This document shows positions 30,897 through 41,554 of a stretch of DNA of 57,897 nucleotides, piece by piece. The notes below the pieces were generated by a model. It saw only the letters and a program-made list of their open reading frames with translations. It was not told the origin of the DNA and ran no database searches. A program made the position numbers and the translations under genes. The DNA comes from Promethearchaeia archaeon. Lineage in GTDB: Archaea; Asgardarchaeota; Lokiarchaeia; Sigyniarchaeales; SOKP01. The stretch lies in the NCBI GenBank assembly GCA_029856085.1, contig JAHQWI010000034.1:1-57897 (forward strand), given 5' to 3'. Numbering within the stretch: position 1 is the first letter of the stretch; each line of letters starts with the position of its first letter.

Positions 30897-32588
30897 TTAA
30901 AATATCTGAGGAGACTGATATTCCCCAAATACATCTCGTAGGACATCACAAATTTCTTGTACAGTGGCGTAAGTTTTAACTGTCTCAATCATAATCGGCA
31001 TAATATTTTTAGAAGAATTAGCAACTTCTTTTAATTGATTTAATTTTTCTTTAACAAGGTTTTCATTTCGGTGTTCCTTTAAATCTCTTAGAGCTTCTTT
31101 GATTCTTCTTTCAGACTCCTTATCATATTTGAAGGTATCTATTTTATATTCGTCATCAGTGCAAAAAATGTTTACTCCGACGACTTTTTTACTCCCATCA
31201 TCAATACGCTTTTGTATCATATAAGCATTATTTAGAATCTCTTTTTGAATGAAAGCATTTTCAATGGCAACAGGCATACCACCCATTTTATCTATTTTAT
31301 CAATATATTCCAATGCCTTTTCTTCTAATTTATTTGTCAAATGTTCAAGATAATAAGATCCACCTAATGGATCAACAACATCCGTAACTCCAGTTTCATA
31401 TGCAAGCACTTGTTGTGTTCGTAATGAAAGTCTAGCTGAGTCTTCAGTAGGAAGAGCTAAAGCCTCATCAGCTCCACAGGTATGAAGAGACTGAGTCCCT
31501 CCTAATATAGCTGCTAAAGATTGAACAGTAGCTCTAATAATATTAACTTGAGGTTGCTGGGCAGTCAATGTGCTCCCACAAGTATGAATGTGAAACCTTA
31601 GCCTTAAAGAGTTAGGATCTTTAGCATTAAACCTATCCCTCATAAGTTTTGCCCATAATCTTCTTGCCGCTCTTAATTTTGCGATCTCCTCAAAAAAATT
31701 ATTATGAACCGTGAAGAAGAAAGATAATCTTGGAGCAAAATCATCAATATCAACACCTCTTTCGAGAACCTCTTCAACATATGAAATACCATCAGCTAAA
31801 GTAAACGCTAATTCATGAACGGCATTACTCCCCGCATCACGCATGTGGTAACCGCATATACTGATTGCATTAAACCTTGGCAAATATTTAGAACAATATT
31901 CAATTACATCTGCAGTTAATCTTAAGGATGGTTTGGGGGGATAGATGTATGCTCCTCTTGCCACATATTCTTTCAAAATATCATTTTGAAGTGTACCGGT
32001 TAATTGTTCTTGTTTAACACCATGTTTTTCTCCTATCGCGATATACATCGCTAATATTATTGATGTTGGTGCGTTTATCGTCATACTAGTTGAAACCTTA
32101 TCTAAGGCTATATCCTGAAAAACTTTTTCGAAATCTTTTAATGAATTAACAGTGACACCAATTCGTCCAACTTCACCTAAACAAATCTTATTATCTGAAT
32201 TATACCCCATTTGAGTAGGAAGATCAAAAGCTATTGAAAGACCTTTTTGACCTTGAGATATTAGATACTTGAATCGCTCATTAGTTTTACTCGCATCAGC
32301 AAAACCACTATACTGTCTCATACTCCAAATCCTTCCTCTATACATATTTGGATACACCCCCCTAGTGAAAGGTGGTGCCCCTGGGAATCCGAGATCCTCT
32401 AGATAATCAGTATTTTCAATATCCTCTGGTCCATACACATGTTTTAGAGGAATTCCTGAAGGTGTTTCAAATTTTTGCTCTCGCTCTCCTTTTTGAACAA
32501 AATTTGATAGATTTTCTTCTTCCCATTCAGACCTTTTGCTTTTAATTTTCTGAAGTTCTTCATTTGTAAACATTATTTTTTTCACCAT
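30897..32588 (-). CDS. Methylmalonyl-CoA mutase family, large (substrate-binding) subunit
   Basis: PFTRGVYPNMYRGRIWSMRQYSGFADASKTNERFKYLISQGQKGLSIAFDLPTQMGYNSD is near-canonical for acyl-CoA mutases. The ORF has no B12-binding domain. Confidence 0.9.
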   Translation of the reverse strand: MVKKIMFTNEELQKIKSKRSEWEEENLSNFVQKGEREQKFETPSGIPLKHVYGPEDIENTDYLEDLGFPGAPPFTRGVYPNMYRGRIWSMRQYSGFADASKTNERFKYLISQGQKGLSIAFDLPTQMGYNSDNKICLGEVGRIGVTVNSLKDFEKVFQDIALDKVSTSMTINAPTSIILAMYIAIGEKHGVKQEQLTGTLQNDILKEYVARGAYIYPPKPSLRLTADVIEYCSKYLPRFNAISICGYHMRDAGSNAVHELAFTLADGISYVEEVLERGVDIDDFAPRLSFFFTVHNNFFEEIAKLRAARRLWAKLMRDRFNAKDPNSLRLRFHIHTCGSTLTAQQPQVNIIRATVQSLAAILGGTQSLHTCGADEALALPTEDSARLSLRTQQVLAYETGVTDVVDPLGGSYYLEHLTNKLEEKALEYIDKIDKMGGMPVAIENAFIQKEILNNAYMIQKRIDDGSKKVVGVNIFCTDDEYKIDTFKYDKESERRIKEALRDLKEHRNENLVKEKLNQLKEVANSSKNIMPIMIETVKTYATVQEICDVLRDVFGEYQSPQIF

Positions 32589-32593
32589 AAATT

Positions 32594-32950
32594 TTATAAA
32601 TTTGGTTCGAATACATAATTGTATATTTCTTTTCCATCTAAATTATCGCAAATTTTAGTGTATATAGGTTTTAATTCCATTCCAGTTTTTAAATTATCTT
32701 GTGTTGATATTTGCCCAAGTGCTTTTACTCCATTTTCAAATTCAACAAGTCCTAGCGCATATGAAGGATTTTTCCTAAATTCAGCAGGAGGTGCTTTTAA
32801 GATAGTAAAAGTAAGAAGCTTGCATGTTCCTGAAGCGTCTATGCTTTCAAATTTACTATTTTTACATTTTAAACATCTTAAATGAGATTTATATTGTATA
32901 TATCCACATTTTTTGCATTTTATCCAGTGATATTTTTCTTCTCTTTCCAT
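32594..32950 (-). CDS. Zn-ribbon / OB-fold protein (DUF35 family)
   Basis: Rubredoxin-like CKKCGY...CLKCKN followed by an OB-like segment (GTCKLLTFTIL...ALGLVEFENGVKALGQI). Ends 5 nt upstream of the mutase gene. Confidence 0.7.
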   Translation of the reverse strand: MEREEKYHWIKCKKCGYIQYKSHLRCLKCKNSKFESIDASGTCKLLTFTILKAPPAEFRKNPSYALGLVEFENGVKALGQISTQDNLKTGMELKPIYTKICDNLDGKEIYNYVFEPNL

Positions 32951-33090
32951 TGTTTCTCATCTTCTCGAACAATAATTATTCTAAAATGCTTATTAGTATT
33001 AAAATAAACTCAATAATATTTATTTCGAGATAATTGAGTTGAATTATCAATAATTATCTAAGCTCAGTAAATCTTTTTTTGAATGATAAT

Positions 33091-33654
33091 TCAATCTTGT
33101 AACTCTACAGATAATGTTTTAAACTTGTTATATAACTCATCAATTATCATATTAAATGCTGTAATTACACCCTTCCCTGTTTTTGCTGATGTTATATAAT
33201 ACCCAAGAAAATTATTTTCTTTAACTATTTCTTTAATATCTGAATCGTCTAAGTTATCCTCGTCTACTAGATCAACCTTATTTGCAAATACAACTATCGG
33301 AATATCTCCACAATGTTTTATAATGTCTTCGTGCCAATCTAATAAATGCTTAAAACTCTCTTCACCAAGTTTATTATCCTCAAGACTATATACAATAATA
33401 GCAGCTTTGCTGTTCTTAAAGAAAGAAGGACGTAAAAAGTGGAAGGTATCCTGCCCAGCAATATCCCAAAATAATAATCTGATTTTATCTCCTTCTAATT
33501 CTTTATTGTACACCGAGAATTGTGCACCTATTGTCTTAACATAATCCCGCTTAAATGATCCTTGAGTGAACTTCTTAATAAGCGAAGTTTTTCCCACTCT
33601 CCCGTCACCGATCAGCGTAACCTTAAAACGGAACCTACGCCCTTCATCACTCAT
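33091..33654 (-). CDS. Ras/Rab-like small GTPase (cassette copy A)
   Basis: G1 GDGRVGKTS, switch-I TIGAQF, G3 WDIAGQD, G4 ANKVD, G5 TSAK. Clearly paralogous to 38515..39054. Confidence 0.9.
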   Translation of the reverse strand: MSDEGRRFRFKVTLIGDGRVGKTSLIKKFTQGSFKRDYVKTIGAQFSVYNKELEGDKIRLLFWDIAGQDTFHFLRPSFFKNSKAAIIVYSLEDNKLGEESFKHLLDWHEDIIKHCGDIPIVVFANKVDLVDEDNLDDSDIKEIVKENNFLGYYITSAKTGKGVITAFNMIIDELYNKFKTLSVELQD

Positions 33655-33825
33655 AGAATTTTTAGAAGAAATAAAATAAGTATATATTCTTTTTAAAAAA
33701 TGTAATTAAACTAAGATCAGTTATTTTTTAATATAAAATTTTTGTTTCTGCTTAAAAGTAATCGAAAAATGTACGAAATTGAAAAAATGTATGAATAATT
33801 TGAAATTAAAAAAAAAGTTTGAATT

Positions 33826-33921
33826 TTATTTAAGATCTTTTAATCCAAATTTATATTTTTCTGGATTTAAAAGAAAATTTCCCATCGAATATTTCCACTT
33901 ATCCTTTTTTTGTTCTTTCAT
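33826..33921 (-). CDS. Conserved micropeptide sA (31 aa: MKEQKKDKWKYSMGNFLLNPEKYKFGLKDLK)
   Basis: Not in the track because it is too short. GAGGT lies about 10 nt upstream of the ATG. A paralogue sits at 39283..39375 in the same position relative to GTPase B. Differences between the two are mostly conservative (S/T, M/I, N/D, E/K, Y/F) plus one synonymous change (TTA/TTG). Confidence 0.55.
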   Translation of the reverse strand: MKEQKKDKWKYSMGNFLLNPEKYKFGLKDLK

Positions 33922-33976
33922 TTTTTGACAACCTCTATTAAATTTTTTTTTATTTTGAGAAATTTGAAAAAATTAA

Positions 33977-34069
33977 TCATTTTATTATACGATTAGTGAG
34001 CTCCCTATGCTCTTCCAAATCGTTCTTTATCTTAAACCTTTCAAATCTCTCCAATTTTTTGTTTTTCAT
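33977..34069 (-). CDS. Possible small ORF (30 aa: MKNKKLERFERFKIKNDLEEHRELTNRIIK)
   Basis: ATG preceded by GGGAGGGCG and an AT-rich TATA-like stretch plus a CTCCATTT element. No paralogue in the second cassette. Confidence 0.3.
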   Translation of the reverse strand: MKNKKLERFERFKIKNDLEEHRELTNRIIK

Positions 34070-34107
34070 TCTTTTTCGCCCTCCCTTTATTTAAATATAT
34101 ATCAAAT

Positions 34108-34134
34108 GGAGGGGGATAATAAAGGTCCCCCTCC
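34108..34134. other. GC-rich hairpin: 9-bp perfect stem GGAGGGGGA / TCCCCCTCC with a 9-nt loop
   Basis: Read directly at 34108-34116 and 34126-34134. It is flanked by the direct repeat CCCTGATTTTA x2 (about 34135-34161). It lies between the 84-aa gene stop and the sORF promoter region and is very atypical for this AT-rich sequence. Confidence 0.5.
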
Positions 34135-34214
34135 CCCTGATTTTATTTCTCCCTGATTTTACTACTTCGGCTTGTCGGATGAATTAAATCAGCGTTATGA
34201 TGATAGAATGTTTT

Positions 34215-34469
34215 TTAGAAATTTCCATAGTTCCTGTAGTGAATATTTCTTCTGATCTTATCCACAGGAATTTTCTCTTCTAAATACTTAGCATTATATT
34301 TAGCTTTCTTCAATAATTTTAATAAAGCATTTTTAACTGGTTTCTCCTCTGCTTTTACTCTCACTATCGTATAATCTTCCTCAATAGCAGGGAGCTCTTC
34401 TAAAATAATTACATGTTCTATTTCAAAAGGTTCCTCAAATTCCTTTCTCTTAACTAATACTTGAACCAT
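34215..34469 (-). CDS. Hypothetical small protein (84 aa)
   Basis: ORF preceded by GAGGTGGTGG a few nt upstream of the ATG. No motif recognised. Confidence 0.55.
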   Translation of the reverse strand: MVQVLVKRKEFEEPFEIEHVIILEELPAIEEDYTIVRVKAEEKPVKNALLKLLKKAKYNAKYLEEKIPVDKIRRNIHYRNYGNF

Positions 34470-34504
34470 TTATTCCACCACCTCTCAATTCTTATTTTTG
34501 TAAA

Positions 34505-34762
34505 TTAATAAACCCTAAAAATATCGAATTTGGAACTAAAAATAATATCTGACGTATATGGCTTTTGTAATGCTTCTTTTAAGGGAATTCCTTCTTCAAA
34601 GTATCTAGGATTTAAGTTCTTATATAGATCATTTTGTTTTTTAGCTTCATCAATATCTTTTTGCTCTGATTTTGAAGTTTCTTTCAACAGAATTATATAT
34701 AGATCTTCAAGTTCGAAAAGGGAATCTTCCTTTACTGTGACTTGTTTCATTTTATTTTTCAC
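34505..34762 (-). CDS. Small protein (85 aa), paralogue of 35485..35712
   Basis: The C-terminal half NLNPRYFEEGIPLKEALQKPYTSDIIFSSKFDIFRVY aligns with DLNPRYFEETTHFKEAIERVYTSDINVGSKFNFFSVF in the 75-aa ORF. GTG at 34762 or ATG at 34750 could be the start. Confidence 0.65.
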   Translation of the reverse strand: MKNKMKQVTVKEDSLFELEDLYIILLKETSKSEQKDIDEAKKQNDLYKNLNPRYFEEGIPLKEALQKPYTSDIIFSSKFDIFRVY

Positions 34763-34799
34763 ACTCTCATATTTTTTCTCATAAGTTTAGTTAGAGCAA

Positions 34800-34857
34800 G
34801 GTTTAATTTATAGTTTAACGTTGCGAAGTTTAAATGGAGTTTAAGACTTGTTTTAGA
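34800..34857 (-). promoter_or_regulatory. Conserved upstream block U1 (TATA-like element plus ACTCCATT motif) for the 85-aa gene
   Basis: 44/58 identical, ungapped, to U2 (35747..35804). On the coding strand it reads ACTCCATTTAAAC...AAACTATAAATTAAACC, ending about 38 nt before the start codon. Confidence 0.5.
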
Positions 34858-34981
34858 CTCTCCTCATCTCTTCTTAAAATGTGTCTCTGTTTAATATAAG
34901 TTCATTCCTAAGAAGAAGTTATAGAGTTTATCACATTACTAGAATAGTTAAAAAAATCGTAAAGACTCAGCTCATCAGGTA

Positions 34982-35344
34982 TTAAAAATTTCTTGACCAA
35001 TATTCTTCGTAAGTTAAATTGTTCGGGATATCTCTGTTCCCCTTATAAATTCGAGGAACTGCTCTAGAATCTATTAAGATCCTGATGAATTTATAATTGG
35101 TTAAATGATCGAGAGCATCCTTAAATTGATAATAAGTCTTAAAATCTTGGATTTTTCCAGTGATATCTATTAAATCGTAATCATATAGAAATTGATCAAT
35201 ATTCGGAAATTGATCTTGAAGCCAATAGTCCTTACAATCTTCAATAATTTTTATAGCATATTGATAGTTACTAAAATGAGTTTTTGAGGAGAAATTTTTC
35301 ATAGTCGCATAAATGATAAAATAATTTGCTTTTAAGGATTTCAA
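34982..35344 (-). CDS. Hypothetical protein (120 aa; alternative start at 35302)
   Basis: ORF rich in Y, F and D. No motif recognised and no paralogue in the window. Confidence 0.5.
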   Translation of the reverse strand: MKSLKANYFIIYATMKNFSSKTHFSNYQYAIKIIEDCKDYWLQDQFPNIDQFLYDYDLIDITGKIQDFKTYYQFKDALDHLTNYKFIRILIDSRAVPRIYKGNRDIPNNLTYEEYWSRNF

Positions 35345-35484
35345 AAACAGAAAATTTTTATATGAAAATTAGTGAAACTGCGAAAATAAGATTAAAACTG
35401 AAAAAAAAAGCATAAATGAATCATTTAAAGTTGTAATAACAGATGAAACAGATAAAATAAGAATAAAAAAATTATTAAATAATT

Positions 35485-35712
35485 CTAAAAAACACTAAAG
35501 AAATTGAATTTAGAACCGACATTAATATCTGAGGTATAAACTCTTTCAATCGCCTCTTTAAAATGAGTAGTTTCCTCAAAATATCTTGGATTTAAATCTC
35601 CAAGTAATTCATCCATTTCACTTTCTATTGGTGTTTGAATTTCAGGTTCTTCAACTTCATGACTTTTCAATATTATTATTTTTTGATAAGTTTGGGTCAT
35701 CTTTTTTACCAC
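35485..35712 (-). CDS. Small protein (75 aa), paralogue of 34505..34762
   Basis: Shares the LNPRYFEE...KEA...YTSDI...SKF.F..V[FY] C-terminal module. GTG at 35712 or ATG at 35700 could be the start. Confidence 0.65.
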   Translation of the reverse strand: MVKKMTQTYQKIIILKSHEVEEPEIQTPIESEMDELLGDLNPRYFEETTHFKEAIERVYTSDINVGSKFNFFSVF

Positions 35713-35746
35713 TTTTTTATTTTATTATTAAGAATAATTAGAATAT

Positions 35747-35804
35747 GGTTTAATATATAGTTTAATCTCGTAAACTCTGAATGGAGTCTTAGATCTTTTT
35801 TAGA
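35747..35804 (-). promoter_or_regulatory. Conserved upstream block U2, in the divergent region between the 75-aa gene and the 840-aa wHTH-TPR gene
   Basis: The coding strand reads ACTCCATTCAGAG...AAACTATATATTAAACC. Same spacing to its gene as U1. Confidence 0.5.
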
Positions 35805-35955
35805 TAATATTTTTTTCTTCACACAATTACATTCATTTTCATCCATAAATAGTATTAATTTTAGAACTCTAATTAGAGTTTGAATCAAAAAGTATAAATA
35901 AACCCCTTCTATATATTAATTATAAGTATATTATCTATTGGTAAATGAATGAATT

Positions 35956-38478
35956 TTGGATACGCCTTGTAATTATCCCCCTGACGAGATTCTAAATCCT
36001 ATAATTGGTAAACCCAATTATGAGTATATTATTCTTTGGATATTGAGTAATAATGAAGTATGCTCTTGGTCAGATTTAAAAGAAAAAGTGAATCGATCAA
36101 CACTATCTATTTATTTGAATAGACTTAAGAGCAATGGGCATATTTTGAAAAGTGAGTTCAATCAGTATCGTATTACATCTAAAGGAAGAGAAAGATACTA
36201 CGAATTAGGTCAATCCAAGAAGGGTAGAAGGAAATTAAGTTATCCTCCAAAGGTAATTCTTGAAAAAAGGAATTATGATCACACTATCCTATGGATGGTC
36301 TATAATAATAATTATTGCAAATGGGGAAATTTCCTTGAAGAACCACTCTCTATTAATCAATCCTCCTTATCAAAGAATATGAATAAATTAATGGAAAAAA
36401 CATTTGTAATAAAGGAAGATAAAGAATATAGAATTACTCGATTGGGTAAATCAGAGTATTCTAAAATGTTAACTTATTATGATTTAGATAGACAGTCGAT
36501 ATTAGAAGAAGAGAGTAAACGAATAACAGAACTAACACAAAAAACACTGAATTTTTTTGAAAGTTTTGAAATCAGTGAGAGGGATATTCAATTTCGATTC
36601 CTTAATAGTGTTTTGAGGTTAGACTATGAAAAAATTAAACCGGTATTAAGGGATGAGGAAGATTTTCATAAAATATTACTTCTTCTTTCGATTAACCATC
36701 CAAATGATTATCCCAAGTACATGTTTCCTGAAGAATTCTCTGAAAAATATGGAATTAAAAAAACTACTCTTGATTATTATATTGATGAAATAGTTGAAAA
36801 CCAAATTTTTCCAATAAGATTTTTTAAATTAGAGGTGCTCCCAGATAAATTTTATTATTTTCAATCAGATGAAAAAGTAGAGATGATGCTTAGGATTATT
36901 ACAGAGGAACATATTACAAAGTTTACCTACTTGAATAAGCTTTTTGAGGGCTCCTCAGATTTAATTCTCCCTCTGAATATGAGTTCTACTGTAAATGCTA
37001 TTTTGGACGAAGCTTGCCAAAATATATTCGATGAAGGATTAAAAAAATCATTAAGAAAATTTTTACCTGGATATATCAATTATTTAGCATATAAAATTGA
37101 GAAAGAAAAGAAGTTAGTTGGTGTTTCTGATAAATTAGAAGGAATTATTTGGCAAAACATTCCTGAAATATTGCAATCAGACATTTATAAAACTTCTCAA
37201 TATCAATTTATCGGTGAAAGCGACATGAATTATTATTTAGATACCTCAATATTAGAAGTACTACAACCATACTTAGCTTTCTGGTTTAAACCAGAAGAAT
37301 TAAATTTAAAGATCCAAGATTATTTAAAATCGAAAGAATATGATAAAGCTTTAAGATTGGAAGAATTGGGCAAAGCTTTTGCTAATTCTAAATCGAAGAT
37401 AAAGAATTTAGATCTCATTATTGTTAAAGGAATTATTCTTAGTCATTTAAATCGGAATAAAGAATCAATAGAATTCTTAAGGAGTAACGTAGATTTATCT
37501 CTTATTAATAAAGAAGATGAAATATATGCTCCTTATCTTTTTGTGTTAGCTTTTTCATATATGACTCTTGGAGATATTGAAAATGCTCTAAATATGACAA
37601 ATAAAGCAATAGAAATATATCCTAAACTACCTCTTTCTCTTGTTTTAAAGGGACTAGTGCTTGGTTATAATAGTATTTATACATTCGATGCAGAAAAAGC
37701 CGATAAAGAAAATGGAATAAGTTATATCGAGAAAGCTATTAATTTAGAATCAAATAAAACCAATAAAGCAAGATATTATCAGTTAAAAAGCCAAATCTTA
37801 CTAGATTTGAATAATTATGAAGATGCTCTAGAATCGATTGATAATGCTATTAAATTAAATTCTAAAACACTAGATTTGTACAATTCTAAAATTAGGATTT
37901 TAGTTTATTTTGACCAGTTCAACGAAATAATAGCCATATTGGACAAATTACTAGTTGATTTTCCTGAAGCGGAAAAGAATCTTAAGATTAAAAAAGCGTA
38001 TATTCTTAAAGAAATGAAAAATATTGAAGCAGGTTTAGAGATAATTAATGAATTAATCGAAAAATATCCCGAAGATAATAGTCTCATACTTAATAAAATT
38101 TATTGGTTACAATATTTAGATGAAAAAGAAAAGGTATTAACAACTATCGAGAAAGTTATAGAAAAAAATCCCGAGTTGGGAATATACCATGACACATATG
38201 GAGAAATTTTAATGAACTTCGAGGAGTATGAAAAAGCTATAAAAGAATTCCTAAAAACAATAGAATTAGCTAGTCATGAGTGGTATATCAACCAGACTTT
38301 TATAAAGTTAGCTATATGTTATAAGGAGGAGGAAAATTATGATTTAGCAATTGATTATCTTAAGAAAGGTCAAGAATTTACAAACAAATGTTTTTGTGAT
38401 CTTGATACAAAAAGAAAATGGCTAGCAATAGTAAATCTTTATCTAGCAGAGATTGAGCAACTAGAAGAGGAATTTTAA
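35956..38478 (+). CDS. Double winged-helix plus TPR-repeat protein (840 aa), putative regulator/receptor
   Basis: TTG start, with an in-frame TGA 6 nt upstream. Two tandem wHTH-like units (NYEYIILWILSNNEVCSWSDL...YRITSKGRERY and NYDHTILWMVYNNNYCKWGNF...YRITRLGKSEY), a conserved middle domain, and a long C-terminal TPR-like array (...YHDTYGEILMNFEEYEKAIKEFLKTIELAS...). Confidence 0.8.
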   Translation: MDTPCNYPPDEILNPIIGKPNYEYIILWILSNNEVCSWSDLKEKVNRSTLSIYLNRLKSNGHILKSEFNQYRITSKGRERYYELGQSKKGRRKLSYPPKVILEKRNYDHTILWMVYNNNYCKWGNFLEEPLSINQSSLSKNMNKLMEKTFVIKEDKEYRITRLGKSEYSKMLTYYDLDRQSILEEESKRITELTQKTLNFFESFEISERDIQFRFLNSVLRLDYEKIKPVLRDEEDFHKILLLLSINHPNDYPKYMFPEEFSEKYGIKKTTLDYYIDEIVENQIFPIRFFKLEVLPDKFYYFQSDEKVEMMLRIITEEHITKFTYLNKLFEGSSDLILPLNMSSTVNAILDEACQNIFDEGLKKSLRKFLPGYINYLAYKIEKEKKLVGVSDKLEGIIWQNIPEILQSDIYKTSQYQFIGESDMNYYLDTSILEVLQPYLAFWFKPEELNLKIQDYLKSKEYDKALRLEELGKAFANSKSKIKNLDLIIVKGIILSHLNRNKESIEFLRSNVDLSLINKEDEIYAPYLFVLAFSYMTLGDIENALNMTNKAIEIYPKLPLSLVLKGLVLGYNSIYTFDAEKADKENGISYIEKAINLESNKTNKARYYQLKSQILLDLNNYEDALESIDNAIKLNSKTLDLYNSKIRILVYFDQFNEIIAILDKLLVDFPEAEKNLKIKKAYILKEMKNIEAGLEIINELIEKYPEDNSLILNKIYWLQYLDEKEKVLTTIEKVIEKNPELGIYHDTYGEILMNFEEYEKAIKEFLKTIELASHEWYINQTFIKLAICYKEEENYDLAIDYLKKGQEFTNKCFCDLDTKRKWLAIVNLYLAEIEQLEEEF

Positions 38479-38514
38479 AGATAGTACTATATTATGATCC
38501 TATAATACTCATGG

Positions 38515-39054
38515 CTAAGTCTTGGATTTATAGTACAATTCGTTAATAAGAGTATTAAAAGCATCATGAACACCATGCCCTGTTTTTGCTGAGGTCAAGT
38601 AATATCCCAGAAAACCTTGTTTTTCTACCATTTTTTGAATTTTAGAATTATCTAGATTATCTTCCTCAACTAGGTCTATTTTATTAGCAAATAGAATTAT
38701 TGGTATTTCACCACAGAATTTTTTAATATTCTCATACCAATTATCTATATGCTCAAAACTCCGTTTACCTAACTCATTTTCTTCAAGGCTAAAGACAATA
38801 ATTGCTGCTCCACTTTCTTTATAAAATGAAGGTCGTAGAAAAAGAAAATCATCCTGACCGGCTATATCCCAGAATATCAATCTAATCTCATCTCCTTCTA
38901 TTTCTCTTTCAAACTTAGAGAATTGGGCACCTATAGTCTTAACATAATCTGTCTCAAAACCACCCTTTGTGTAATTCTTAATCAATGATGTTTTACCCAC
39001 TTGCCCGTCTCCTATCACTGATATTTTAAATCTGAATTTTTGAGCAGCGGTCAT
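38515..39054 (-). CDS. Ras/Rab-like small GTPase (cassette copy B)
   Basis: GDGQVGKTS, TIGAQF, WDIAGQD, ANKID, TSAK. Well over half of positions look identical to GTPase A by eye. Confidence 0.9.
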   Translation of the reverse strand: MTAAQKFRFKISVIGDGQVGKTSLIKNYTKGGFETDYVKTIGAQFSKFEREIEGDEIRLIFWDIAGQDDFLFLRPSFYKESGAAIIVFSLEENELGKRSFEHIDNWYENIKKFCGEIPIILFANKIDLVEEDNLDNSKIQKMVEKQGFLGYYLTSAKTGHGVHDAFNTLINELYYKSKT

Positions 39055-39282
39055 TAATTAATTATAGAAAACAAATTTTCATAATTTATTTAATAGTAGA
39101 TTAGATGTTTTGTAATTTAAAATTTTAGTTATTAATGAAATCTAGTTAATACAAATTTCTATTGTTAAAGACTATAAGATTTGAAATAAGGTAAATATCG
39201 AATATAACTCTAATTAAAATAGAATTTTAAATAAAATTTAAGAATTAAAAAAGAAAAATTTAAAAAAAAATTTTGAATATTA

Positions 39283-39375
39283 TTAAAGATCTTTCAATCC
39301 AAATTTGAATTTCTTTGGATTTAAAAGAAAATCTTCTATCGTATATTTCCACTTATCGTCTTTACTTTTTTTCAT
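39283..39375 (-). CDS. Conserved micropeptide sB (30 aa: MKKSKDDKWKYTIEDFLLNPKKFKFGLKDL)
   Basis: Paralogue of sA. AAGGT lies about 9 nt upstream of the ATG. It has the same position and orientation relative to its GTPase and directly faces the 633-aa wHTH-TPR gene. Confidence 0.55.
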   Translation of the reverse strand: MKKSKDDKWKYTIEDFLLNPKKFKFGLKDL

Positions 39376-39427
39376 TTTTTTTTACCTTCTAATAAGTTTT
39401 TTCTTAATTTTAATTTAGTTTGTATCC

Positions 39428-39477
39428 TATATTTAGTTTTATTACATGAACTTCAAATGAAGTTCGAATTTTAAAGG
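39428..39477 (-). promoter_or_regulatory. Upstream block U3 (diverged copy of U1/U2) between sB and the 633-aa gene
   Basis: TATATTTAGTTTTATTACATGAACTTCAAATGAAGTTCGAATTTTAAAGGA shares the TAGTTT..AACT..AATGnAGT core with U1 and U2. About 60% identical by eye. Confidence 0.35.
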
Positions 39478-39547
39478 AAGCTCGCGAAATTTATATAGTA
39501 TTAAAAACTATATATAACTAAAGATAAAGACTTTTAGAGAAAATATC

Positions 39548-41449
39548 ATGAGTCAAATAAATTTACCTCCTAAAGAGATTTATAATCCTCCAGCCCTGGA
39601 GAAAAAAAATTTTGAACATATCATTCTTTGGATGTTATATAATAATGAAGAATGTGAGTGGTCAAATTTTACTCAAAAACCGCTTGAACTTCGGTTATCT
39701 ACTCTCTCAAAATATCTATCATTATTAAAGGGGAAAGGATACGCTGAGAATATTTCAAGAGGGCACTATAAAATTACTTCAGAAGGCAGAAAGAGATATC
39801 TTGAATTATCACAAGCTAAAGAAAAAAAAAGAACTCTAAGTTATCCCCCTACTATAATTAAAAGAAGGAGAAATTACGATCATTGGATTCTTTGGATGGT
39901 TTATAACAATAATTATTGCAAATGGGCTAATTTCCTAGCAGAACCTCTTTCTATCAATCAATCTTCCTTGTCTAAGAATATAAACTTATTACTCGATAAA
40001 GGATTTATAGAAAAAGAAGAAAAGAAATATAGGATTACCCGCTCAGGTAAAATAGAGTATTCTAGAATATTACAAGAATATGATTTAGATAAACAATCAA
40101 TTTTGGAGGAAGAAAGTAAGAGAATTGAAGAGATTACAATAAAAACTATCAAATTTTTTAATAAATATAACATTGAAAATAAAGACATACAATTTAGGTT
40201 ACTCAACAATATGCTGAAATTGGATTATACCAGAGTTGAAGCAATGCTAACAAATGAGGAAGATTTTGACAAAATCCTACTCTTTATCTCAATTAATCAC
40301 CCAAGTCAATATCCTAATTATCTTTCCGTAGAGGAGTTCTCGAATACTTATGGAATTAAAGAATCTAAAGTGGATTATTATATTGATGAAATTATTGAAA
40401 ATCAAATTTTCCCTATTAAATTTTTTAAAATTATCGTTCAACCAGATATGTGTTATTACTTTCAGGAGGAAGAAAGATTAGAAATAATGCTTCGAGCTAT
40501 CACAGAAGATCATATCACCAAATTTACCTATCTAAATAAGTTGTTTTCAAGATCATTAGACATAAGTAGCACCATAAATGATATATTAGAAGATATTTGT
40601 CAAATATTATTTCCTATTGGTTTAAAAGAATCCTTACATATTTTTTTACCAGAATATATTAACTATTTAGCTTACAAAATTGAAGCAAAAGTTGAATTTA
40701 AAGAGACGTATGATAAATTAGAGGGCATTATTTGGCAAGATATGATAGATATATTTCAATCAAGAAGTATCGAAGAGTTACAAGATGATTATAAAGAAGA
40801 AATTAAAAAACTTGATATAAAAATTGAATCAAATCCAGAGAATCTTGATTTATACTATTCAAAGATAAGAATTTTAATTTATTATAATCAATTCGATGAT
40901 GTATTGAATTTATTAGACGAGATGCTGGTAATATTTCCTGAGAGTGAACTTGATATTAAAATGAAAAAGGCGTCTGTTCTTAGAAGGATGCAAGAAGTAA
41001 AAGCCGGTTTAGACATAATTAATGAATTGATTGAAAAATATCCTCAAAACAATGATCTTATTAATTACAAAGCTTATTGGCTTCAATATTTAGATAAAAA
41101 AGAAGAATCTCTGAAAATAATCCAGGATCTTGTAGAGAAAATTCCTGATAATGCAATGTATCATGATACATATGGAGAAATTCTAATGTATTTTGAACAG
41201 TATGAAGAAGGGATACAAAAATTCTTAAAAGCTATAGAATTAGCTAGCGATGAGTGGTACATCAACCAGACCTATATAAAGCTCGGTATATGTTATAAGG
41301 AGGAGGAAAATTTCGACTTAGCTCTCGAAAATCTTAAAAAAGGGAAAGAATTAACCGAGAACAGCTCTATAGACGAAGAAACAAAACAAAAATGGCTTAT
41401 AATCACAGATCTTTTTCTTGCAGAGATTACGCAGATTGACGAAGAATAA
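39548..41449 (+). CDS. Double winged-helix plus TPR-repeat protein (633 aa), paralogue of 35956..38478
   Basis: Collinear with the 840-aa protein (for example NYDHWILWMVYNNNYCKWANFLAEPLSINQSSLSKN, ENQIFPIKFFK, HITKFTYLNKLF, YHDTYGEILMYFEQYEEGIQKFLKAIELAS). It lacks roughly 200 aa of the TPR region present in the longer copy. Confidence 0.85.
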   Translation: MSQINLPPKEIYNPPALEKKNFEHIILWMLYNNEECEWSNFTQKPLELRLSTLSKYLSLLKGKGYAENISRGHYKITSEGRKRYLELSQAKEKKRTLSYPPTIIKRRRNYDHWILWMVYNNNYCKWANFLAEPLSINQSSLSKNINLLLDKGFIEKEEKKYRITRSGKIEYSRILQEYDLDKQSILEEESKRIEEITIKTIKFFNKYNIENKDIQFRLLNNMLKLDYTRVEAMLTNEEDFDKILLFISINHPSQYPNYLSVEEFSNTYGIKESKVDYYIDEIIENQIFPIKFFKIIVQPDMCYYFQEEERLEIMLRAITEDHITKFTYLNKLFSRSLDISSTINDILEDICQILFPIGLKESLHIFLPEYINYLAYKIEAKVEFKETYDKLEGIIWQDMIDIFQSRSIEELQDDYKEEIKKLDIKIESNPENLDLYYSKIRILIYYNQFDDVLNLLDEMLVIFPESELDIKMKKASVLRRMQEVKAGLDIINELIEKYPQNNDLINYKAYWLQYLDKKEESLKIIQDLVEKIPDNAMYHDTYGEILMYFEQYEEGIQKFLKAIELASDEWYINQTYIKLGICYKEEENFDLALENLKKGKELTENSSIDEETKQKWLIITDLFLAEITQIDEE

Positions 41450-41554
41450 AAATAATCTATCTCTCTGAAGATAACGCTTTATATTAGCATTAAAAGCTTC
41501 ATGAACTCTTTGCCTAAGTTAATATAAATCCCCAAACCAAGTAAATATTTTTAA

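Follow-up and report, generated by a model that had tools for sequence, protein, structure and literature searches.

Sequence comparison identifies sA and sB, two small genes in the window (here, the whole stretch of DNA that was analysed, 57,897 nucleotides long), as minimal, module-only members of a lineage-specific and previously uncharacterised family of small proteins, with a narrow distribution and a link to an Asgard GTPase/TPR cassette. What had been two anonymous 30-codon frames can now be assigned to a defined family, recognisable by its motif, its translation signals, a promoter block common to many members and a constant set of neighbours. Both are, with high confidence, separately translated protein-coding small genes, and the explanation that we consider the best as a whole, with a probability of roughly 0.38, combines such translation with docking of the encoded proteins onto TPR proteins through their conserved module. 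Genes under 50 codons are rarely examined, and Asgard genomes encode dozens of Ras-, Rab- and Arf-like GTPases, the partners and inputs of which are almost entirely unknown. If the peptide binds either the TPR regulator or the GTPase of its cassette, it would be among the first concrete regulatory inputs to an Asgard small-GTPase module; if there is no such binding, what has been gained is a clean annotation of a family of small proteins particular to this lineage.

sA, sB and the family to which they belong

The two genes lie on the minus strand, sA at positions 33826-33921 (31 codons plus stop; start codon at 33921-33919) and its paralogue sB at 39283-39375 (30 codons plus stop; start codon at 39375-39373), and their translations match the family profile with E-values of 1e-19 and 2e-20, respectively. 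The first-pass annotation had described a conserved gene of ~30 codons in both cassettes, preceded by a GAGGT/AAGGT element: both frames are present, the peptides that it quoted were reproduced, the strand is the minus strand, and the Shine-Dalgarno-like sequences GAGGT (33931-33935, minus strand) and AAGGT (39384-39388, minus strand) were found 9 nt ahead of the sA ATG and 8 nt ahead of the sB ATG. Its remark that nucleotide similarity continues past the ends of the frame is likewise borne out, the nearest 30 nt on each side being 67%-73% identical. The peptides are 70% identical, and the two copies share a ~150-nt island of 81% identity (80.6% over the ORF DNA alone), beyond which the next 100 nt on each side are only 47%-52% identical; this is the level of shuffled sequences (55 +/- 3%), so that the conservation island is sharp and is not explained by chance. 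A run of nine T residues stands 10 nt past the sA stop codon (33808-33816, minus strand) and, in a conserved arrangement, another 13 nt past that of sB (39262-39270, minus strand). The run after sA resembles an archaeal oligo-T terminator, and runs of at least five T residues within 60 nt of the stop were found in 43 of 63 family members. The encoded peptides are basic (pI ~9.7, with Lys or Arg at 9 of 30 residues), include several aromatic residues and are hydrophilic overall (GRAVY -1.1 to -1.4); neither GRAVY values nor Kyte-Doolittle plots with 9-residue windows, the highest of which scored 0.3, revealed a hydrophobic stretch or an export signal in sA or sB.

The family module, ~30 residues at the C-terminus, consists of a basic helix (..KKR..K.WK.S.G.Y/F) followed by the tail L-N/H-P-x-K-F/Y-x-F-G-L-K/R-D-L(-K). 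Both sA and sB conform to the module consensus ..WK.S.G(Y/F)(Y/F).L(N/H)P.K(F/Y).FG(L/F)(K/R)DL(K), which ends at the stop codon or one residue before it, and both align with the long-form profile over its positions 47-76 (E = 1.7e-7). When the three copies of the window's genome were combined into a profile, matches that preserve the frame were obtained (E <= 1e-3) in 31 of 36 genomes of the window's genus, with no convincing match in 24 genomes from other families of the order or class. Across 301 Asgard genomes representing 70 genera, the family was confined to the window's genus (16/22) and one sister genus (19/27), which belong to the same taxonomic family. Seventy ORFs were gathered from the matched loci, and the motif occupies the extreme C-terminus in all of them. 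Short forms comprise 24-31 aa; in the long forms, of 74-90 aa, the last ~33 residues represent the conserved part and are preceded by a variable helical part of 45-60 aa. Although short, sA and sB carry the version of the module typical of long forms (..K.WK.S...). An origin of the two by truncation of a long form gained no backing from the upstream frames, which contain stops and show only Lys-rich similarity. In rare cases, the module is fused to a winged-helix domain (P0123, 161 aa; P0117, 104 aa) or to a domain of ~270 aa (L022). The P0123 fusion is encoded at L098:8001-8486, where the next gene but one encodes a 187-aa paralogue of its winged-helix part that has transmembrane helices at its end and lacks the module.

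The third copy of the window's genome, on contig C135, is preceded by GAGGT 8 nt ahead of the ATG and is flanked by genes for a vWA protein and a luciferase-like oxidoreductase; its nearest GTPase gene is 2.5 kb away, with three to four ORFs intervening, and no regulator is adjacent. Public resources contain the family under no name. The exact sA and sB peptides are both present, nameless, in a public protein collection, the 159 matches to long forms in public protein sets are all 'hypothetical proteins' of Asgard MAGs devoid of Pfam domains, and a profile run exhaustively against 1.84 billion cluster representatives recovered just 51 clusters, all of small proteins. Searches of Pfam, NCBIfam and PADLOC with sA, sB and one long form gave no usable match, and neither a sequence-profile search of the PDB nor a search of the ESM Atlas returned a relative of the family.

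The proposal that the frame is translated and that purifying selection acts on the peptide is upheld by the ~70 homologues, which keep the frame, the Shine-Dalgarno-like site and the motif while the DNA diverges, and the dN/dS check suggested along with that proposal gave a pairwise median of 0.31. A GGAGG/GAGGT-type site is located 5-18 nt ahead of the start in 63 of the 70 members, against baselines in the window's genome of 7% for random ATGs and 17% for the ATGs that come first in long ORFs. The entropy of the three codon positions, taken over the 18 codons that align best, amounts to 0.75, 0.60 and 1.02, the third position being the most variable. The pooled pN/pS of the family is 0.41; for sA versus sB, pS is 0.31 and pN is 0.11. 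The long forms prolong the same frame by 45-60 codons.

Several observations concern translation starts more broadly. Throughout the window's genome (G000), a Shine-Dalgarno-like site (-18 to -5) precedes ~17% of the first ATGs of ORFs of at least 250 codons; compared with 90% in the small-protein family, this makes Shine-Dalgarno-led translation look like a minority mode in that genome. In one long-form subfamily, the position homologous to the ATG is occupied by CTG in 15 and by TTG in 2 of the 17 sequences checked, with GAGGTG 6-8 nt ahead of this codon and, frequently, a stop in the same frame two codons earlier. The CTG codons of this subfamily (CTG/TTG-type forms include L040, L046, L024, L047, L052-L054, L056, L059, L060 and L062-L064) look like start codons; CTG starts are unusual for archaea. 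The sA orthologue of genome G002 (L004:1440-1700, minus strand) has ACG at the position of the sA ATG, and TTG, immediately behind GGAGG, is its sole NTG codon in frame. Otherwise, both frame and peptide have remained intact, all changes being conservative, and this orthologue would represent either a near-cognate start or a recently silenced copy.

Cassettes, recurrent neighbours and a shared promoter block

Each of the two small genes directly precedes a Ras-family small GTPase gene on its own strand: GTPase A (33091-33654, minus strand; Pfam Ras, E = 4e-39) begins 171 nt downstream of sA and GTPase B (38515-39054, minus strand; Pfam Ras, E = 7e-40) 228 nt downstream of sB. Divergent from sB is the gene for a 633-aa wHTH-TPR protein (39548-41449, plus strand), with two winged-helix domains and a C-terminal TPR array (Pfam HTH_45 and TPR), and an 840-aa paralogue detected with Pfam and tblastn (35956-38478, plus strand) represents the divergent regulator of cassette A. 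The first-pass annotation had located both small genes between the GTPase gene and the divergent regulator, a description that applies directly to sB and fails for sA, where several small genes intervene before 35956-38478. The AF2 model of the 633-aa protein includes confidently predicted wHTH domains at residues ~20-90 and 108-178 and a TPR array at 412-632 (pLDDT ~90). Neither a Roadblock nor a longin protein was recognised in the two cassettes of the window.

The intervening genes of cassette A include those for proteins of 84, 85 and 75 aa (34215-34469, 34505-34762 and 35485-35712, respectively, all on the minus strand). The 84-aa group and the 85-/75-aa group are related to each other (hhalign 90%, E = 1.5e-6) and share the core N-P-(K/R)-Y-(L/F)-E-E, whereas common descent of the 'LNP' motif of sA and sB with these neighbours, another earlier suggestion, received no support from hhalign, which gave the family a probability of 0.3% against either group. 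Members of this superfamily are frequent neighbours of the sORF family in other genomes, and one follows the P0123 fusion on L098. A further ORF of 30 codons (33977-34069, minus strand), 55 nt upstream of sA, has GGGAGGG ahead of its ATG and a TATA-like stretch further up, encodes a peptide conserved in genome G002 and may be co-transcribed with sA. In the very A/T-rich spacer between the 84-aa gene and this ORF at 34069, a terminator-like scan located a G/C-rich 10-bp hairpin with a T-rich tail (34108-34134, plus strand).

For a survey of neighbourhoods, ORFs within 3.5 kb of 71 members were clustered, and the clusters were named by Pfam and NCBIfam. Type I context, represented by ~40 loci including both cassettes of the window, features the wHTH-TPR gene in 31 loci (36 genes), which is always divergent, with 0 of 36 on the strand of the family member; the Ras-like GTPase in 36 loci, with 42 of 43 genes on that strand; and, without exception on that strand, a TPR_12/TPR_MalT protein of ~540 aa in 15 loci. 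Also part of this context are the small orf84 and orf75/85 proteins and, in 11 loci, a co-directional gene for a 724-aa B12/radical-SAM enzyme, which is found at the cassette end and has as its immediate neighbour another small protein rather than the family member. In six cassettes (L083, L096, L057, L043, L034 and L050), a gene for an M3 oligoendopeptidase, PepF-like with 500 bits to TIGR02290 (below the cut-off of 562), stands beside wHTH-TPR or TPR genes. At four loci (L070, L074, L079 and L083), short forms lie beside a wHTH-TPR gene and a TPR protein gene with no adjacent GTPase.

Two other contexts account for about a third of the family members and have no TPR gene nearby. In Type II, forms of 87-92 aa are accompanied by an AbrB-like protein, a UbiA-type prenyltransferase and a radical SAM enzyme that is the housekeeping AmmeMemoRadiSam (269 bits, cut-off 220). 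In Type III, forms of 76 aa occur with two 347-aa Ras-family GTPases, encoded 0.7-1.8 kb upstream, a nitroreductase and a Ubl/E2/E1/JAB set. At four loci (L075, L077, L078 and L073), the 76-aa members are two genes away from a compact set of this kind, with a Ubl ending in GG-x, E2, E1 and JAB, and just before these members are the tandem GTPases, the N-terminal domain of which (~175 aa) received no assignment. It is precisely in the two genera carrying the family that the wHTH-TPR paralogues reach their highest numbers (2-9 matches per genome); in sister genera, they are sparser or not found. Match counts of the family and of the wHTH-TPR proteins correlate in 11 genomes of the same genus with rho 0.72, which is weak support because the genomes are relatives and matches are not copy numbers; likewise, given that all genomes come from two genera, the conserved gene order is partly a matter of common descent.

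Upstream of sB is a promoter block (39426-39468, minus strand) composed of the palindrome GAACTTCA-TT-TGAAGTTC at 39448-39465 and an A/T-rich, TATA-like stretch. The palindrome is situated in the middle of the 172-bp divergent spacer common to sB and the wHTH-TPR gene, a geometry typical of an auto-regulated pair. On the coding strand, the block reads ATTCGAACTTC-N5-RAGTTYC, then AATAAAAACTATATA, a second A/T-rich stretch, AGAGGT and the ATG. Among 12 short-form genes from 8 genomes, 10 are preceded by it, the C135 copy being one of them, and it is absent ahead of sA. The core pattern TTCGAACTT-N4-9-AGTT occurs three times in the window's genome, twice upstream of family members. As a DNA motif, TTAAATCCA has 5 matches in the window versus 2.5 expected, which is not significant, and the loose palindrome GAACTT..AAGTT is not enriched genome-wide (17 versus ~22 expected); judging from these counts, only the longer promoter block is specific, unlike the loose palindrome. 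The palindrome may represent an operator-like site, with the wHTH-TPR protein as the candidate to bind it. The block with its palindrome and the T-runs beyond the stop codons are evidence for a separate transcription unit. Among sequencing runs, two metatranscriptomes contain ~10% of the sampled words of window positions 32500-41500.

A candidate docking peptide and competing readings

Our tentative reading of the module is that of a docking peptide for the TPR proteins of the cassette, and we place its chances well below even. The occurrence of a conserved C-terminal module behind interchangeable N-termini (none, helical, winged-helix or the 270-aa domain) corresponds to the design of a docking tag, and the AF2 model of one long form (mean pLDDT 66; 78-83 for residues 41-70) depicts a helix with a loose tail, which is what a segment that acquires its fold on a partner should look like. 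TPR arrays are classic receptors for C-terminal docking tags and, as the cassette encodes two kinds of TPR protein, an interaction between peptide and TPR array is favoured. A link to the cassette is indicated by the constant orientation of the wHTH-TPR and TPR_MalT genes and the nearly constant one of the GTPase genes, by the short forms that adjoin TPR genes and no GTPase, and by the restriction of the family to the genera richest in wHTH-TPR paralogues. The array recognising the module would be that of the divergent wHTH-TPR regulator or that of the co-directional MalT-like TPR protein. By way of the module, the variable N-terminal part of long and fused forms would be delivered to the TPR scaffold. 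The module-only sA and sB would fill the same TPR site, or vie for it, and in doing so tune the regulator; this tuning would affect the cassette, including its Ras-like GTPase, and the palindrome-bearing promoter would close a feedback loop. A more elaborate version, which we regard as doubtful, envisages an intracellular peptide-receptor circuit in which the wHTH-TPR factor binds the promoter palindrome and senses module peptides, or proteins tagged with the module, via its TPR array; if true, such a circuit would couple transcription to a Ras-like GTPase switch. Docking onto TPR proteins is opposed by the third of the family members that have no TPR gene nearby and by the generic, not RRNPP-specific, nature of the TPR fold. 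A complex prediction that combined three chains, those of the 633-aa wHTH-TPR protein, GTPase B and sB, with a separate alignment for every chain, returned a score of 0.00, with no controls folded, and counts neither for nor against any of the readings.

Foremost among the rivals, though unlikely, is a module whose target is the Ras-like GTPase, on which it would act as small effector, as GDI-like clamp or as cofactor of a GAP/GEF, much like the small helical partners found in bacterial MglA modules, leaving the TPR proteins with a separate role. The GTPase genes are the commonest neighbours of the family and are almost always oriented as the family member is, sA and sB immediately precede GTPase genes of their own, and Type III loci, an unrelated context in which Ras-family GTPases are encoded within 2 kb and TPR genes are missing, fit this rival better than they fit TPR docking. 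It accounts poorly for the four loci at which short forms adjoin wHTH-TPR and TPR protein genes and no GTPase, as well as for the distance of the C135 copy from the nearest GTPase gene; moreover, Asgard genomes carry many small GTPases, so that some proximity is expected. Weighing these points, we infer that the interaction between peptide and TPR protein ranks above direct GTPase binding.

Also improbable, and next in rank, is the view that these are small basic proteins acting outside the cassette, on a nucleic acid, the ribosome or a membrane, in which case the neighbourhood would reflect only shared regulation or descent. The basic and aromatic composition of the peptides, the three different conserved contexts and the promoter block common to copies in unrelated places would all agree with an outside target, but the same partners recur time and again in paralogous cassettes, although their gene order differs, and the fusion to a DNA-binding winged helix hints that nucleic acid is not bound by the module itself.

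Very unlikely in comparison is a RiPP-like pathway, in which the small proteins would serve as precursors: the B12-binding radical SAM enzyme would modify them at a conserved C-terminal site, and the TPR protein and the M3 oligopeptidase would handle them. Such a scheme would make use of the co-directional 724-aa enzyme of 11 loci and the M3 oligoendopeptidase of six, and the MalT-like TPR protein weakly matches, below the cut-off, TPR proteins of FxSxx-COOH and cyclophane RiPP systems. A radical SAM gene is, however, absent from both cassettes of the window and is not adjacent to the family member in the 11 related loci, so that the pairing of a precursor with an adjacent radical SAM maturase and its partners was not found; the 724-aa enzyme has a different small protein next to it, the AmmeMemoRadiSam enzyme of Type II loci is a housekeeping one, and no RiPP recognition element was identified.

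The remaining rival concerns the nucleic acid rather than the protein. A 14-bp hairpin, in which the codons for L-L-N-P pair with those for F-G-L-K, can be folded within sA (33836-33874, minus strand), and the same hairpin within sB (39290-39328, minus strand). Across 66 distinct sequences, pairing is retained in 78.2% of cells and, after shuffling of the 3' partners among sequences, in 76.8%; as the shuffling scarcely lowers the value, the pairing mostly follows from the conserved codons. Of the 14 pairs, 10.95 were observed versus 9.3 expected from synonymous recoding with the codon usage of the window's genome, an excess that could stem from selection on RNA or DNA or from inherited codon choice among related sequences. 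The hairpin being more stable than such recoding predicts, the conservation may in part be directed at something other than the peptide, and a secondary role of the ORF hairpin at the RNA or DNA level may exist. The caveat of the first-pass annotation that the similarity might reflect a conserved sRNA or a 5' leader of the GTPase mRNA can be largely set aside, given that gene order relative to the GTPase varies and that the Rfam 15 covariance models have no match at the sORFs at E <= 1. With fold z-scores of 0.06 for sA and -1.3 for sB, the two regions fold no better than shuffled sequences. Codon periodicity in the conserved loop and flanks of the hairpin, the toleration of broken pairs (several are disrupted in L005, L018, L021 and others, where the peptide is kept), the extension of the frame in long forms and the conservation of the start and Shine-Dalgarno-like site indicate that the hairpin is not the main object of selection. 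Thus, an RNA or DNA element as the sole conserved object, be it the hairpin followed by a T-run or a 5' leader or uORF controlling the GTPase in cis, with the peptide irrelevant, is most improbable: sA and sB do lie upstream of GTPase genes, but homologues occur before, after or far from them instead of holding a fixed 5' position, and the C135 copy, with no adjacent GTPase, argues against a leader peptide in particular.

Comparison with known systems

The proposed docking of the module onto TPR proteins has precedents among TPR receptors of C-terminal tags, such as Hop and CHIP, which bind the EEVD tail of Hsp70/Hsp90, and PEX5, which binds PTS1. The likeness consists in an extreme C-terminal motif behind interchangeable N-termini and in TPR proteins encoded alongside; the family motif is much longer, basic and aromatic and has no sequence relation to those tags. 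A second parallel is offered by the MglA-MglB-RomR/RomX small-GTPase modules, with their small helical accessory proteins and TPR partners (PMC13408092; bioRxiv 10.1101/2022.03.17.484758). Here, too, a Ras-like GTPase is encoded together with small helical accessory proteins and TPR partners; the differences are the lack of sequence similarity to RomX or MglB and the presence of a divergent wHTH-TPR regulator.

The third comparison, and the closest in logic, is with RRNPP quorum-sensing systems, which are recognised by a propeptide of 10-100 aa, its export, a receptor of ~250-500 aa, TPRs in the receptor and direct neighbourhood of the two genes (PMC10075063). RRNPP(A) pairs known from Bacillota and their phages are Rap-Phr, PlcR-PapR, NprR-NprX and AimR-AimP. 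Three of these five features are found for sB (PMC10075063), that is, a small peptide (30 aa, with 31 aa in sA), a TPR receptor and direct neighbourhood; the last of these applies to sB, across the 172-bp divergent spacer, and not to sA, which is separated from its regulator by small genes. The resemblance extends to the arrangement of a small gene with a strong ribosome-binding site next to a gene for a DNA-binding TPR protein and to the C-terminal location of the conserved part of the peptide. By contrast, the sA and sB peptides have no secretion signal, the candidate receptors, with 633-840 aa and two winged-helix domains, exceed the 250-500 aa of RRNPP receptors, the module of ~30 residues is far longer than the mature RRNPP peptides of 5-10 residues, the host is an archaeon and a Ras-like GTPase forms part of the unit. 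The wHTH-TPR fold is a generic match as well, in that Foldseek searches with the model of the 633-aa protein retrieved only generic TPR superhelices and nothing specific to RRNPP receptors. Given the absence of export and the size of the receptor, sB and its wHTH-TPR neighbour are not a member of the RRNPP group and would at most work in a similar manner intracellularly. Peptides devoid of an export signal would place an RRNPP-like logic inside the cell and, if the peptide-receptor circuit considered above is true, it would constitute an archaeal counterpart of that logic without secretion, wired to a eukaryote-like small GTPase.
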